The notes under the pieces were generated by a model. That model saw nothing but the letters and a program-made list of their open reading frames with translations. It made no database searches and was not told the DNA's origin. A program made the position numbers and the translations under genes. This document shows positions 20,163-25,731 of a stretch of DNA of 35,664 nt, piece by piece. The DNA is from a virus: UHGV virus genome UHGV-0379599, one strand, 5' to 3'. Numbering within the stretch: the first letter of the stretch is position 1; the number at the start of each line of letters is the position of its first letter.

Positions 20163-20552
20163 ATGATTGACGCTCATGACTTCACAAGATGGGTGCGCAC
20201 ACAGGACACCCGTCTGGCTCCCGTTCTTCAGGGATTATTTGATCTCTACATCCGTGGTCGTGACAACAGAGCACGCACCACAAAACCGGAGAATGCAGAC
20301 ACCCTTTATTTCACAGTAGACGACTGCTACCGCGTGGACTTCACACCACACGGGCTGGCGTTGCACTGCCTGACACCACACGGAGAATCACTGCTGGCGT
20401 ATTACGACTCCCCGGCCTCCGTATTTGCGGCAATGCTGGCGCATCGCACTGCTGGCGGGTGTGCCTCGCTGAGTGAATACACCGCTGAATTTAACCGCCT
20501 TTCTGCCCTCTTCTCGCAGGAGTGGCAGCGCGTGACGGGATACCAGCCATGA
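20163..20552 (+). CDS. Hypothetical early protein (129 aa)
   Basis: ORF immediately upstream of and overlapping the A start. Confidence 0.45.
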   Translation: MIDAHDFTRWVRTQDTRLAPVLQGLFDLYIRGRDNRARTTKPENADTLYFTVDDCYRVDFTPHGLALHCLTPHGESLLAYYDSPASVFAAMLAHRTAGGCASLSEYTAEFNRLSALFSQEWQRVTGYQP

Positions 20553-23389
20553 ATGAGTTTGCATGGAGCTGGAATGAACCACGGCCAGCCATTGATCCGG
20601 CCAGATTTACGGAGCACAGGCAGGAAACTGAAACCGACCTGCAACGCGCCATCCGTTACTACCTTGAGGCAGACAAAAAGGCTCTGGAAGAACAGGAAGC
20701 GAAGGAGGAAGCCTTTTTCGCACAATCCACCGTGGGTAAAAAACTCATGGCATCCCTTGAGGAAGCCGGACAGCGTGAAAAGCTGGCACAAAGCATCATC
20801 AGCAAGCGTCAGGCAACAGAACAAGACCCGGTGGCCCGTGCTTTTGCCACACTGAAGGTGCTTCCCGTTTATCTGCGTGAACCTCTGAGCCGCCACCTCT
20901 CTTTCCTGCGCAAAAAACAGGAAGCCGATCGCCAGAAAGGCAAAAAGAGCTGGCAGGCTGAACGCTACGCGCGCGGAACCCTGCGCAAAATATTCGAACG
21001 CCTGGACCGCACCGACCACCGCTGGCTGACACCGGGTTATCGCTCCCTTGCCGGACGCGAACGCCTGGATGATTTGCTTTACCTGCCGCAGCTCAACAAG
21101 CACCAGATACAGACGCTGGCCACCATGACGGCGGCGATGTTCAGCAGCACCTTCGAAAAACTCTGCGATGGCTTTGGCGCGACCGATGGTGAGTTGACCA
21201 TGGAGGTGGCACTGAAGGCGTATCAGATGCTGGCCCGCATGGCGTTACACCTGCACGCCATGCCTCCACATTATGACGCACTGACAACAGACAAAGACCG
21301 CAAGAACGAACCGGACACGGAACTGCTGCCGGGCGCAATCCTCCGCCTGACCTGTGCAGAATGGTGGAAACGCAAACTGTGGCTGTTACGTTGCGAGTGG
21401 CGGGAAGAACAACTCCGCGCCGCCTGTCTGGTTTCCAGAAAAACATCGCCCTATCTGAGCCAGGACGCGTTAAGCGAGTTTCGCGCACAGCGCGAGAAAA
21501 CACGCGATTTCCTGAAAAGTTTCATGCTGGAAAACGAAGACGGGTTCACGATTGATCTCGAGACGGTGTATTACGCGGGAGTAAGTAACCCGGTCCACCG
21601 TAAAGCAGAAATGATGGCCACCATGAAGGGGCTGGAACTTCTGGCCGAAGCCCGTGGCGACAGAGCGGTGTTTCTGACTGTCACCTGCCCGTCAAAATAC
21701 CACGCCACAACAGAGAACGGTCATCCGAATCCCAAATGGAACGGGGCCACCATGCGCGACTCCAGCGATTACCTGGTTAACACGTTTTTTGCGGCGGTCC
21801 GCAAAAAACTGAACCGCGACGGCCTGCGCTGGTATGGCATCCGCACGGTGGAGCCTCACCATGACGGCACCGTGCACTGGCATATGATGGTCTTTGCACA
21901 TCCGGACGAGATTGAAACCATCGTGTCCCATGTCTGCGATATTGCCATTCAGGAAGACCGCCACGAGCTGGGCGATGACATAACTCCGCGTTTTAAGGCG
22001 GAGTACGTAGACGGCTCAAAAGGCACGCCAACCAGCTACATCGCCACCTACATCGGAAAGAACCTGGACAGCCGCGCCGTGGATGGCATCGACCCGAAAA
22101 CGGGCAAGCCACGCGTTGACCACGAAACCGGAAAATCAATGGCAGAGAGCGTGGAACGCGCCATCGGCTGGGCGCGCCTTCACCGGGTCCGCCAGTTCCA
22201 GTTCTTTGGCATTCCCTCTCGTCAGGTATGGCGTGAACTCCGCCGCCTTGCCAGCCAGATGGCACGCAACCCGGAAGGCCCACAACGGCTGAAGGATGAT
22301 GCAATGGATGCGGTACTCGCTGCCGCTGATGCCGGGTGTTTTGCCACCTACATTGAGAAACAGGGCGGCGTACTTGTTCCACGCAAAGACTACCTGATTC
22401 GCACCGCCTACGACCTCGCAGATGAGCTGAACGATTACGGCGAGCAGAGTGTACAGATTTACGGGATCTGGTCGCCGCTCATCGGGGAGTCTTCCCGTGT
22501 GTGCACACATCCGGATAACTGGAAGCTGGTAAGACGTAAACCTGAAGCAGAAGACAGCGCCCGCGAAAATGGTTTTGACCTTCAGGGCGGCCCTGCCGCC
22601 CCTTGGACTCGTGGCAATAACTGTCCCCGTGTACAGGAAACGGACAACAACGGGACAGAACAGCCGGAAGAACGGCCAGCACCGTGGCCGCAGCTCCCTG
22701 ACGGCGTTGAAGTGAACGAATGGATGCGCTCACTGAAACGGCACGAACGCCGGGCGCTGATGCGTTCGCTTCGTGACAAACAGGCAAAAAACAGCAGTGA
22801 TGAAATGCAGAGCTGGACACAGAGCCGCAAACAGCAGCGGCCTTTGCCTGATAACCACGAATTACTCGCTAAAGAATGGCGGGAGTCTGCCGAATCTCTC
22901 GGCCTGCATATCGGTGAACAGCAGATGCAGCACCTGTTACGGGGCGGCAGCCTGTACGTTGACGGCAGCATCATTGCACCGCAGGGATATGAAATTGTAC
23001 GCAAACCGGATACCCGCCCGGACAGCCGAATCACGCAACTCTGGCAACGCCTGAGCCGTAATCACGGCGTAAGCAGCACGGAGATCCGTCATAACCCGGT
23101 CGCCAGCTATCTGGAACAGCTGGGGGCATCAGACCCTGAAGCCGCCGCACGCCTGGCATCCACACTTCAGCAGGACCAGAACACCATGAAAACACCCGTT
23201 ACCGTGCTTTCTGACATGCTGCGCGCCATCCGCGACGCAGAGCACGCACAGAGAATCAGTGAAACCACTGAACGCGCCCGCCGCAAAGCAGACCTGCTGC
23301 GGGGTGGCCTGACCAGTGGAAACAAAAAACAGACAGAAACGGGATTCACAAATCCCGTAAATGAGCAAAAAACGCGCCGCGATATATGA
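20549..23389 (+). CDS. A: Rolling-circle replication initiator (P2 A-like endonuclease); start at 20549 or 20522
   Basis: HUH-type motif TVEPHHDGTVHWHMMVFAHPDE; following tyrosine-containing region (TSYIATYIGKN); size and position between early genes and the Q/P block. Confidence 0.8.
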   Translation: MNEFAWSWNEPRPAIDPARFTEHRQETETDLQRAIRYYLEADKKALEEQEAKEEAFFAQSTVGKKLMASLEEAGQREKLAQSIISKRQATEQDPVARAFATLKVLPVYLREPLSRHLSFLRKKQEADRQKGKKSWQAERYARGTLRKIFERLDRTDHRWLTPGYRSLAGRERLDDLLYLPQLNKHQIQTLATMTAAMFSSTFEKLCDGFGATDGELTMEVALKAYQMLARMALHLHAMPPHYDALTTDKDRKNEPDTELLPGAILRLTCAEWWKRKLWLLRCEWREEQLRAACLVSRKTSPYLSQDALSEFRAQREKTRDFLKSFMLENEDGFTIDLETVYYAGVSNPVHRKAEMMATMKGLELLAEARGDRAVFLTVTCPSKYHATTENGHPNPKWNGATMRDSSDYLVNTFFAAVRKKLNRDGLRWYGIRTVEPHHDGTVHWHMMVFAHPDEIETIVSHVCDIAIQEDRHELGDDITPRFKAEYVDGSKGTPTSYIATYIGKNLDSRAVDGIDPKTGKPRVDHETGKSMAESVERAIGWARLHRVRQFQFFGIPSRQVWRELRRLASQMARNPEGPQRLKDDAMDAVLAAADAGCFATYIEKQGGVLVPRKDYLIRTAYDLADELNDYGEQSVQIYGIWSPLIGESSRVCTHPDNWKLVRRKPEAEDSARENGFDLQGGPAAPWTRGNNCPRVQETDNNGTEQPEERPAPWPQLPDGVEVNEWMRSLKRHERRALMRSLRDKQAKNSSDEMQSWTQSRKQQRPLPDNHELLAKEWRESAESLGLHIGEQQMQHLLRGGSLYVDGSIIAPQGYEIVRKPDTRPDSRITQLWQRLSRNHGVSSTEIRHNPVASYLEQLGASDPEAAARLASTLQQDQNTMKTPVTVLSDMLRAIRDAEHAQRISETTERARRKADLLRGGLTSGNKKQTETGFTNPVNEQKTRRDI

Positions 23390-23436
23390 AGCGCGCACAA
23401 GACAGGCGAAAACGGGATTTAAAAATCCCGTAAACG
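23337..23436. repeat. Two copies of a 20-bp palindrome (ACGGGATT-n4-AATCCCGT) about 73 bp apart; candidate protein-binding sites (parC-like centromere/operator)
   Basis: Copy 1 at 23339-23358 (inside the 3' end of A); copy 2 at 23412-23431 (35 bp upstream of the parM-like start). Flanks also repeated (AAACGGGATT...ATCCCGTAAA). Confidence 0.5.
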
Positions 23437-23465
23437 ATTAATTAATCAACATAAGGAAAATCGAC

Positions 23466-24425
23466 ATGAAAATTTGTATCGACGACGGCTCCACCAACAT
23501 CAAGCTGGCATGGACTGAGAACGGCGAACGCCGCAACGCCATCAGCCCGAACAGCTTCAAGTCGGAATGGTCTGCGCCGTTCGGTGGTACACAGCCCGCG
23601 AACTACATGCTTGATGGCGTGCGCTATGGTTTTGATCCGGTCAGCGATCGCTTTGTCCAGACGACCGACACGCAATACCAGTACAGCGATGTGAATGTCA
23701 TTGCCATTCATCACGCGCTGGTCAAATCAGGCATCACGCCACAGGAGGTGGATGTGGTTGTCACCCTGCCACTGAGCGAGTATTTCGACACAAACGCACA
23801 ACCGGACATGGCCAACATCAACCGCAAAAAAGTGAACGTTATGCGCCCGGTGGAATACCAGAACGGCGAAACATTCACTATCCGCAACGTACGGGTTATG
23901 CCTGAATCCATTCCGGCTGGCTTTAAGGCACTGGCTGACATGAGTCCGTTTGAATCCCTGCTGATTGTGGATTTAGGCGGAACCACGCTGGATGTGGCAA
24001 AGGTTCAGGGACAACTGGCAGGTATCAGCCAGGTGTTTTGCGATCCACACGTAGGCGTTTCCCTGATAGCCGATGCCGTACTGTCGGTGATGGCCACTAA
24101 CGGTATGCGTACCAGTCACCATATCGCCAATACCATCATCGAACATCGCCACGATGAAGCCTGGCTGCGCCAGCACATCCACAATGACGCGCATTACGAC
24201 AGCCTGATGGCGGTTATTCGTGAAAAGGAAGAAACACTGAAACAACGCGTGATCCGCGCGCTGGCGGGTTTTTCGGGTTACGGGCGGGTGATGGTTGTCG
24301 GTGGCGGGGCGGAGATTGTGGCACCCGCTATCCGCGAAGCCTGCGGAGTTAATGCGACTTTCATCGCGGACGGGGTGCCACAGTTTGCTCTGGTTAATGG
24401 GCTGTACGCAATGGACAAGGAGTAA
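23466..24425 (+). CDS. parM: ParM/StbA-like actin-type plasmid segregation ATPase
   Basis: MKICIDDGSTNIKLAW...ISPNSFK...YSDVNVIAIHHAL...VDLGGTT closely parallels recalled plasmid R1 ParM (MLVFIDDGSTNIKLQW...ISPNSFK...YSDVNVVAVHHAL). Confidence 0.8.
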   Translation: MKICIDDGSTNIKLAWTENGERRNAISPNSFKSEWSAPFGGTQPANYMLDGVRYGFDPVSDRFVQTTDTQYQYSDVNVIAIHHALVKSGITPQEVDVVVTLPLSEYFDTNAQPDMANINRKKVNVMRPVEYQNGETFTIRNVRVMPESIPAGFKALADMSPFESLLIVDLGGTTLDVAKVQGQLAGISQVFCDPHVGVSLIADAVLSVMATNGMRTSHHIANTIIEHRHDEAWLRQHIHNDAHYDSLMAVIREKEETLKQRVIRALAGFSGYGRVMVVGGGAEIVAPAIREACGVNATFIADGVPQFALVNGLYAMDKE

Positions 24426-24429
24426 ACCA

Positions 24430-24741
24430 ATGACGACACCAACCAGACGGATAAGTTTCTATCTGAAGCCTGCGGCCGTCAAGAACGAAAGCGAAGCATG
24501 CGCCTGGCTGGACAGCCTTACACCAGAAGCCCGCAAAAGCGGCCAACGCGTGGCTTTTCTGGCCGGGCTGGCACTTCTGAAAATGAATCCAGCAGAGGCT
24601 TACCGACTGGCTGCATGGGCTGACGATGAGGCGTTATCAGTGACACAAACCAGGACAGAATGCCCCGCGTCACAGCCAGTATCAACCGCACAGATAACCA
24701 GTCAGATGGCCGGAAATATCCGGGCGTTATTTCCCGAATAA
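24430..24741 (+). CDS. parR: ParR-like centromere-binding adaptor (104 aa; start at the ATG 4 nt after the parM stop)
   Basis: RRISFYLKP...LDSL....R...AFLAGLAL parallels the recalled R1 ParR N-terminal RHH region (RRTIAFKLNP...LDSI...R...AALTAGLAL); gene order parM-parR. Confidence 0.6.
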   Translation: MTTPTRRISFYLKPAAVKNESEACAWLDSLTPEARKSGQRVAFLAGLALLKMNPAEAYRLAAWADDEALSVTQTRTECPASQPVSTAQITSQMAGNIRALFPE

Positions 24742-24746
24742 CACAA

Positions 24747-24770
24747 CATCAGGGCGCATCCGCCCTGATG
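24747..24770 (+). terminator. Hairpin (ATCAGGGCG-cat-CGCCCTGAT) after parR
   Basis: 9-bp perfect inverted repeat 5 nt after the parR stop; weak T tract. Confidence 0.35.
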
Positions 24771-24839
24771 ACTTTAATCCGGGAACATAAACAAGGGGGA
24801 CACAATGCAACACATTGACAGAGAAAAAGGAAAAAAAGC

Positions 24840-25247
24840 ATGAACAGAAAACAGAAACAAGAGTTGAAATACTTCTTACGTAAAGAAATTGCCAGGCTTG
24901 AAGATGCAGAGTCACAATCATCAGAAATTCCGTTCGGAATGGATATCAACGACGCCCGTATGCTTCAGGCATACCGTATAGCTCAGGCTGCACTACAGAC
25001 AAAACCGTTAAATAACATACATGAAAAGTATGATTATTTTACGGATACCGCTTGCTTGCTGACATCTGAAGAACAAAAGATAGCCCAACTTTTAGGCGAC
25101 GCATGGAACCTGTATTTAACATTGCCAGTTGAGCATCCAATGGGTAGAGATGAATTTTGCCGGGCAATTCATCATTGCCAAAATATGGTGTTGGCACGCC
25201 CGGCCATCAGGGCGCTGGCCAGGAAGGGGCAAGGCTATAAAAGATAA
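24840..25247 (+). CDS. AT-rich orphan gene, 135 aa, unknown function
   Basis: ORF preceded by a purine-rich SD region (GAAAAAGGAAAAAAAGC); lower GC than the backbone; located where P2 carries old/tin. Confidence 0.5.
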   Translation: MNRKQKQELKYFLRKEIARLEDAESQSSEIPFGMDINDARMLQAYRIAQAALQTKPLNNIHEKYDYFTDTACLLTSEEQKIAQLLGDAWNLYLTLPVEHPMGRDEFCRAIHHCQNMVLARPAIRALARKGQGYKR

Positions 25248-25250
25248 GTA

Positions 25251-25276
25251 AAACGCCCTCCTCCAGAGCGTTTATT
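25251..25276 (+). terminator. Weak hairpin terminator after the 135-aa gene
   Basis: AAACGC...GCGTTT stem followed by ATTTC. Confidence 0.3.
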
Positions 25277-25279
25277 TCA

Positions 25280-25731
25280 ATGCACAATAGTGCACAAATT
25301 TGCACGATTTTTTTGAACGACTTTTTGCCCTTCCGGCCCGCGTGGCGGCTGGATCCGTCAGGGATCCGTGCGTGCACAAAAAAACGCGCTTTTTCTGCGC
25401 GCAGGTGACGGGGGAACAGCCCGCGTTTCAGGGGGTAAATAGCATCCCCTGAACGATGTCGCAGCAACACAACAGAATGGCTGTATTTCTCACGCTGAGC
25501 GTGAAAAAGACGTGAGGGCTTTTGATTTGATGGGGTGAAAGGTAAGGCCGTCAAAATCGCACTGAGGCGGTGAGAACATGCAGTTAACGCGGTGGGATTG
25601 CGTAAGAGTCTGACCGTCGATGATGGCAATAAGCAGGAAAGCGTCGTGAAATTATCTGACTGATACAGGAGCTGGAGAGTCGGGGCATAAATTTTTTATG
25701 CCCCGGCGAAGCAGCAGACAAGCGAAGCGCG
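25280..25731. other. Non-coding region expected to contain cos (packaging site), by synteny
   Basis: About 450 bp without a credible ORF between the accessory genes and portal gene Q. Several dyad symmetries (GGATCC-gtca-GGGATCC, TTCAGGGGG...CCCCTGAA, GGGGCATAAA-TTTTTTATGCCCC). GC-rich stretches resembling P2/186 cohesive-end sequences (GCGTGGCGG; GACGGGGGAACAGC) but no exact match recalled. Confidence 0.35.

Follow-up and report, generated by a model that had tools for sequence, protein, structure and literature searches.

A conserved palindrome pair ahead of parM-parR as a candidate centromere of P88-like phages

Described parC sites and the locus of a P88-like phage

The parC centromere of R1 spans 159 bp, with a 39-bp promoter region between two sets of five direct 11-bp iterons. 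It lies upstream of the partition genes and is bound by about one ParR dimer per iteron, and the system is autoregulated by ParR (PMC2241845). Here we describe two 20-bp palindromes ahead of the parM-parR genes in UHGV virus genome UHGV-0379599, a stretch of 35,664 nucleotides (hereafter the window) that represents a P88-like, P2-type phage (Xuanwuvirus, Peduoviridae) with a parM-parR cassette. Sequence comparisons make it probable that this pair is the cis-acting partition site (parC, or centromere) of a type II ParMRC cassette, in which the two palindromes would most likely serve as docking sites for ParR.

Several features of the locus recall R1. The palindromes lie directly upstream of parM-parR, in the position of type II parC sites, and they are short repeats with a periodicity of about one helical turn that fall into two blocks. 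The half-sites resemble iterons, with an A-rich stretch followed by CCC, as read in the R1-type plasmid L127. The window ParR belongs to the same family as that of R1 (PF10784), and the window ParM is ~47% identical to the R1/StbA type, with 46-52% identity to plasmid ParMs including this type. In contrast to R1, the window has no recognizable promoter between the sites, one of the sites lies in a coding region, and the carrier is an integrating phage rather than a plasmid.

The family profile also links the window ParR to the ParR of pB171 (PDB 2JD3, deposited as “STBB protein”). This was the only solved structure matched, at full length and with E = 1.3e-15, by a ParR profile; the window ParR sequence alone had no match among PDB sequences. 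The 2JD3 structure is a ribbon-helix-helix dimer that builds a helical scaffold on DNA, and proteins of this fold recognize DNA through the N-terminal strand. The window ParR (103 amino acids) differs from that of pB171 (130 amino acids) in length and in its strand residues, and the difference in the strand implies a different site specificity. An AlphaFold2 model of the window ParR monomer, built from a 13-sequence alignment, was poor (predicted local distance difference test score, pLDDT, of 56, with the N-terminal strand modelled as a helix) and was not used.

The chromosomal cParCMR system of C. botulinum has a parC of three palindromic repeats, and its binding by ParR was detected by gel shift (PMC12270681). 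Thus, palindromic parC sites of low copy number exist. Unlike in the window, this parC is reported to follow parR, no conserved spacing was reported, and the proteins come from an unrelated Firmicute lineage. A precedent for a ParMRC-like system in an integrated phage is provided by Corynebacterium prophage CGP3, in which an actin-like filament protein (AlpC), a DNA-binding adaptor (AlpA) and specific sites (alpS) act on viral DNA after induction (PMC4446434, PMC5539076). The AlpAC proteins are at most distantly related to those of the window, and the host belongs to another phylum.

The parMR genes of Serratia and Enterobacter prophages (L138, L141, L143) occupy the same slot between the gpA and portal genes as those of the window, with a ParM that is 54-58% identical and a ParR of PF10784. 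A compact element of inverted repeats is located ~45-110 bp ahead of their parM. In contrast to the window, this element is a single 19-bp arm pair, composed of AGGAACGAAATAGAAAAAT, ~28-31 nt and ATTTTTCTATTTCGTTCCT (L138 3385-3455, with L141 and L143 equivalent in position). Its arms contain ATTTTTCT, the iteron motif of IncF and IncL/M plasmids, and the ParR strand is NRKISFYL, not TRRISFYL.

Anatomy of the palindrome pair

Site 1 (ACGGGATTCACAAATCCCGT, 23339-23358) reads ACGGGATT-CACA-AATCCCGT and has the core GGGATT-N4-AATCCC; site 2 (ACGGGATTTAAAAATCCCGT, 23412-23431) reads ACGGGATT-TAAA-AATCCCGT. Both palindromes have perfect 8-bp arms around a 4-nt centre. Their starts are 73 bp apart, and the whole two-site element measures 93 bp. 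Each palindrome is part of a longer unit of 42 nt on the plus strand (23323-23364 and 23396-23437), in which an A-rich 5′ flank precedes the site, and a repeat search aligned the two units as direct repeats with 81% identity. Site 1 is in frame within gene A, where it corresponds to the codons T-G-F-T-N-P-V, 10-16 codons before the TGA stop (23387-23389). Between the end of site 2 and the parM ATG (23466) there are 34 nt. An earlier reading of this DNA from its letters (the sequence-only reading) had described two near-identical palindromes with similar flanks and a spacing of about 73 bp, the first inside the last codons of A and the second 35 bp before parM. All of this was borne out, apart from the exact distance to parM.

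Read as ACGGGATT-N4-AATCCCGT with up to two mismatches, the pattern matched the 35.7-kb window at sites 1 and 2 alone, compared with 0.01 matches expected by chance, and none of 100 shuffles had two matches. Thus, the pair is real and not a chance occurrence. No further copy of the 8-mer arm was found within 800 bp, even with one mismatch. The looser pattern GGG-N10-CCC occurs six times in the window, about the number expected by chance. We considered a third GGG-N10-CCC, at 25433, as a ParR site and rejected it because it is part of another, longer inverted repeat (TTCAGGGG...CCCCTGAA).

The 53-bp spacer between the palindromes (23359-23411) is A-rich and contains the stop codon of A; its length is conserved and its sequence is not. 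It also includes a G+C hairpin, CGCGC...GCGCG at 23373-23395, which overlaps the stop codon. On the minus strand this hairpin is followed by TTTTTT and has the look of an intrinsic terminator. It is not present in the Plesiomonas and Hafnia B lineages that are described below.

Downstream of site 2 is a conserved leader (23441-23460, plus strand) that combines a ATTAATCAA motif with the Shine-Dalgarno sequence AAGGAA. It is followed by parM (23466-24425, plus strand), encoding an actin-like segregation ATPase of 319 amino acids that matches PF06406 (6.4e-82) and PF21523 (6.9e-69) at full length. The parR gene (24430-24741, plus strand) starts 4 nt after the parM stop and encodes an adaptor of the ParR/StbB family (PF10784, 4.3e-24), the proposed binder of the sites.

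Inheritance with parMR and conservation of the sites

An exact-pattern scan of viral contigs identified 120 loci. All but five chance matches are P88-like and have A and ParM adjacent. Two loci (L046 and L066) have another gene upstream, the product of which is either 31-39% identical to A or unrelated, yet both sites and parMR are kept, and the breakpoints lie just 5′ of site 1. Thus, the sites are part of the parMR module and not of gene A. In a Hafnia relative with a 95% identical ParM (L131-L133), gene A terminates within site 1 and reads it in a different frame. Site 1 of this relative retains GGGATT-CATG-AATCCC but not the outer AC/GT positions. As the core is kept though the A frame differs, the constraint is on the DNA and not on the A protein.

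Two further arrangements occur in Hafnia. In type B, the sites are located in or after a different open reading frame (ORF) of 167 amino acids. In L144 and L145, a 93-amino-acid ORF has been inserted directly after site 2, where it uses the leader, and parM has a leader copy of its own. The duplicated leaders (CACAT-TATTAA-CA...GGA...TTATTTATG; region 1140-1545) lie on either side of the insertion. The sites of these two loci are 397-470 nt upstream of parM and are still at the 5′ end of the operon.

We also examined a metagenome sample of 57 loci that were picked by ParR sequence and are therefore unbiased regarding the motif; only P88-clade loci were returned. Both sites are present in 56 of the 57 loci, with site 1 found in 56 and site 2 (at most two mismatches) in all 57. 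In 52 loci the sites are 73 bp apart, and the distance is 72-74 bp in the remaining loci with two sites. Two P2-like phages that lack parMR, 186 and a phage of Klebsiella, are without such a pair in the region where A ends. The sequence-only reading had suggested searching for the palindrome in the rest of the genome and in related phages; this search found the window otherwise empty and the pair present in P88-like relatives.

These patterns bear on the possibility that the sites bind a protein other than ParR, such as A in an origin-related or regulatory role, a phage regulator (C, Cox or Ogr) or a host nucleoid protein. Palindromes are generic sites for dimers, site 1 is within gene A, and both sites are at the end of the early/replication module. 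However, the pair persists where A is replaced and is missing from the P2-like phages without parMR, and the motif is confined to this part of the phage genome, unlike the usual operators of regulators near promoters. ParR is the only DNA-binding protein that is consistently co-inherited with the sites.

A replication role is further countered by the location of the origin. Within gene A, CAGGGCGGCCCTGCCGCCCCTTGGACTCGTGGCAATAACTGT (~22585-22625) aligns with the annotated ori region of 186, AAGGGCGCTTCTGCGCCCTCTCGGAGTTCTGTCAATAACTGT, and this homologue is ~740 bp upstream of the sites. In detail, the window sequence (aligned at ~22604) has a hairpin followed by CTTGGACTCGTGGCAATAACTGT, where 186 has CTCGGAGTTCTGTCAATAACTGT. 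The palindromes have no similarity to this ori homologue and do not have the form of a P2/186-type ori. Because the ori homologue sits elsewhere in A, the replication reading of the palindromes is removed, and the “site linked to replication control” offered by the sequence-only reading is not supported. Overall, we consider it unlikely that a protein other than ParR is the binder.

ParM homologues with 54-62% identity occur in the same gpA-portal slot of P2-like prophages of Plesiomonas, Hafnia (a second type, Hafnia B), Serratia and Enterobacter. A scan of genome contigs with the ParR alignment recovered three species, and scans of viral contigs with the Plesiomonas and Hafnia B ParM recovered one Serratia-type locus and nothing, respectively. 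The Plesiomonas locus (L137) has GCGGGACAACAAAAACCCGA and GCGGGACAACACTAACCCAC 72 bp apart, and Hafnia B (L139, L146 and L145) has GGGATTGAGGAAACCC and GGG(T/C)T(C/T)ATTAAATCCC 73 bp apart. The ParM proteins of both lineages are 62% identical to the window ParM, and their upstream regions are unalignable with P88 except for the sites and the leader (ATTAATCAA and the Shine-Dalgarno sequence). Shuffling the upstream region of either lineage produced a GGG-N10-CCC pair at 72-73 bp at most once in 100,000 trials (1e-5 or less).

Given this conservation, we evaluated whether a 73-bp tandem duplication at a cassette recombination junction could have left the pair as a neutral relic that now lacks a function. 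The similarity does extend over the whole 42-nt direct repeat, the repeats do recombine (a one-unit deletion in locus L213 is described below), and the cassette occupies a known hypervariable position of P2-like genomes. A relic is nevertheless difficult to reconcile with the lineages in which ParM is 62% identical and the intervening sequence has been fully replaced, as these retain both the core and the spacing. Moreover, the palindromic arms are kept while the centres vary, and both copies were retained in nearly all of the ParR-selected loci despite the risk of recombination. We regard a neutral relic as highly improbable.

The potential to form hairpins differs among the lineages. As RNA, the P88 sites fold with an energy of -10.7 kcal/mol each. 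The value is -7.1 kcal/mol for Hafnia A, -4.9 and -4.2 kcal/mol for Plesiomonas (a 10-nt loop with a stem of 3-4 bp) and -4.6 to -2.7 kcal/mol for Hafnia B. The lineages have in common a bipartite GGG/CCC core, with A/T-rich sequence in its middle, and a constant distance of about seven helical turns, but not the capacity for hairpin formation.

This result is relevant to a role of the palindromes as RNA or DNA hairpins, either intrinsic terminators of antisense (minus-strand) transcription that enters gene A or hairpins that stabilize or process an A-parM messenger RNA. In addition to the stability of the P88 hairpins, the minus strand has T-rich tails after both sites and after the intervening G+C hairpin, site 1 scored as terminator-like on this strand, and a 181-nt region folds better than its shuffles on both strands (z of -2.65 and -3.24). 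The statement of the sequence-only reading that the palindromes have no T-run therefore applies to the plus strand and fails for the minus strand. However, no minus-strand gene ends at the sites, and two better terminator-like hairpins are already present between parR and the leftward late genes, at 24747-24770 and 25251-25273. The polymorphisms in the stems are not compensatory, as they mix wobble and mismatch changes, and no Rfam match was detected at E <= 1 on either strand of 22800-25400. Most directly, hairpin stability falls from -10.7 to about -3 kcal/mol while GGG-N10-CCC and the 72-73 bp spacing persist. Because core and spacing are kept and hairpin stability is lost, a protein-binding site is favoured over a terminator or RNA hairpin. 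The earlier conclusion that the palindromes are unlikely to be terminators holds, on these comparative grounds, and we consider a hairpin function quite unlikely. In the P88 clade itself a minus-strand terminator role, without a target and not conserved, might still apply.

Within the E. coli clade (68 haplotypes), the 4-nt centre is the most variable part of the sites, and the centre of site 2 has two alleles, TAAA and TCAG. Conserved arms and a variable centre are as would be expected for a palindrome contacted by a dimer. The ParR alleles of E. coli diverge to 52% identity (loci L002-L121), with a hypervariable linker at residues 65-95, while ParM is 94-99% identical across the P88-like loci. 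Two parts of ParR do not vary among these alleles: the first 18 residues, with the N-terminal strand RRISFYLKP, and the last 8 residues (NIxxLFPE). By analogy with R1, the C-terminal tail is presumably the end that binds ParM. The invariant strand and tail would match the near-invariant sites.

Across more distant systems, the type of upstream repeat can be compared with the type of ParR strand. The GGG-N10-CCC pair is found upstream of parM in P88 and Hafnia A (strand TRRISFYLKP), Plesiomonas (TRRISFYLNP) and Hafnia B (TRRVSFYLKP). The Serratia and Enterobacter prophages (NRKISFYLKP) have the 19-bp inverted repeat with ATTTTTCT, IncF and IncL/M plasmids (NRKCSFYIYP) have direct iterons of the ATTTTTCT type, and the R1-type plasmid L127 (RRTIAFKLNP) has 11-bp A-rich-CCC iterons around the promoter. 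The GGG-N10-CCC pair is absent from the Serratia/Enterobacter, IncF, IncL/M and R1-type systems and from one IncI plasmid that we examined, all of which have repeats of another type. Thus, ParRs with TRR(I/V)SFYL always have the GGG-N10-CCC pair, and the motif type follows the ParR strand type across 10 systems.

Proposed centromere function, distribution and neighbouring features

In combination, the locus has an actin-like ParM, a small ParR directly downstream, and repeated cis motifs that adjoin the operon, are co-inherited with parMR and track the ParR type. We propose that ParR would act as a ribbon-helix-helix dimer, the N-terminal strand of which (T-R-R-I-S-F-Y) would read the major groove. 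A half-site would consist of an A/T-rich stretch followed by TCCC, with GGGA followed by A/T as its mirror image. Each palindrome would then be a convergent pair of half-sites ~10 bp apart, centre to centre, an arrangement that would suit a pair of ParR dimers bound to the same helical face. The 73-bp distance, or about seven helical turns, would place both ParR assemblies on the same side, so that they could form one compact complex across the A-rich spacer. Through its NIxxLFPE tail, ParR may link this complex to the ends of ParM filaments, and the filaments would drive DNA copies apart. From the sites, which occupy the 5′ end of the parM-parR unit, ParR might in addition control its own expression. 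We infer ParR binding, its stoichiometry, partition activity and the stage of the life cycle at which the system acts. A more specific scenario, which we put forward tentatively and hold to be rather unlikely, is that this integrating P2-like phage, which replicates by a rolling circle, has a minimal two-site type II centromere. Bound by ParR, it would allow ParM filaments to place phage genomes or move them apart once infection or induction has occurred, or would sustain a plasmid-like carrier state.

Several observations weigh against a ParR-bound centromere. The arrangement is not that of R1 parC, as the window has four half-sites in two inverted pairs over 93 bp. In E. coli, where the clade is 95-97% identical overall, the cores are just mildly more conserved than their surroundings, and they are polymorphic: T23345C (GGGATT to GGGACT) is found in 14 of the 68 haplotypes and C23429T (AATCCC to AATCCT) in 10. 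A natural variant with one site, L213, was the sole exception among the 57 ParR-selected loci. It has a precise deletion of one 73-bp unit, through recombination between the 42-nt repeats, and the C-terminus of A is changed as well. The cross-lineage evidence and the correlation with ParR type come from three GGG-N10-CCC lineages of shared ancestry. The ribbon-helix-helix fold of ParR is predicted from sequence-profile homology. In nearly all genomes the prophage is integrated in the chromosome (1408 of 1410 places), a setting that sits less readily with a plasmid-type centromere. Finally, a search for sigma-70 promoters between or after the sites detected none, which leaves an operator role in particular unsupported.

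The sequence-only reading had proposed a “ParR centromere/operator.” The centromere is the best-supported reading, based on co-inheritance, the core, the spacing, the ParR strand and hairpin decay; the operator did not find support, as there is no sigma-70 promoter. The leader is conserved in four lineages and did not score as a sigma-70 promoter. Two weak promoter candidates noticed by eye were rejected: TTTAAA-17-ATTAAT overlaps site 2 and does not persist in the common TCAG allele, and the spacer sequence TGAGCA-15-TATATG was not accepted as evidence. It may be that parMR is read through from the early operon.

We searched complete E. coli genomes for a 161-bp region of this locus and found it in 1274 of 5426 (~23%), at 1408 chromosomal and 2 plasmid places. 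One relative, NZ_CP148288.1 (L124), is a complete P88-like genome of 34,461 bp that is circular and was deposited as an E. coli plasmid; its ParR is 100% identical to that of the window. Literature searches found no description of parMR, its site or its role in P88-like phages. Annotations of P88-like prophages routinely include ParM and ParR but not their cis site. A ParR-bound parC is a known kind of element, and what would be new is a centromere in a common family of E. coli prophages.

If the two-site centromere is active, a functional plasmid-type centromere would be embedded in many chromosomes, including those of UTI89, O157:H7 and O104:H4 strains. Moreover, if four half-sites suffice for the capture of ParM filaments, a centromere can be much smaller than the ten iterons of R1. 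With two 20-bp sites defined and their spacing fixed at 73 bp, experiments on ParR binding and on the role of the cassette would become easier, and a TRRxSFYL ParR together with the GGG-N10-CCC pair could serve as a sequence signature for annotating this type of parC.

The segment 22900-24900 of the window is 95-98% identical to phage P88, PhiR44_2, phiSM and others. The local order on the plus strand is A, parM, parR and a 135-amino-acid ORF, followed by leftward portal and terminase genes. The gene names used in the sequence-only reading were right (gpA, PF05840; ParM, PF06406/PF21523; ParR, PF10784). Gene A (20522-23389, plus strand; PF05840, 1e-129) encodes a replication endonuclease and is outside the partition module, although its 3′ end overlaps site 1. 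The A protein has 955 amino acids, and its last ~140 residues (about 810-955; window 22022-23338) lack an equivalent in A of P2, 186 and the Klebsiella P2-like phages, as alignments with these proteins end near residue 811.

The strong terminator-like hairpins at 24747-24770 and 25251-25273 follow parR and the 135-amino-acid ORF, respectively, and score on both strands. As terminators, they would delimit the parMR unit and stop late transcription that runs leftward. Between the 135-amino-acid ORF and the portal gene there is a non-coding inverted repeat, TTCAGGGG-GTAAATAGCA-TCCCCTGAA, at 25425-25455. The sequence GAGGCGGTGAGAACATGC at ~25565-25585 resembles the cohesive end of P2.

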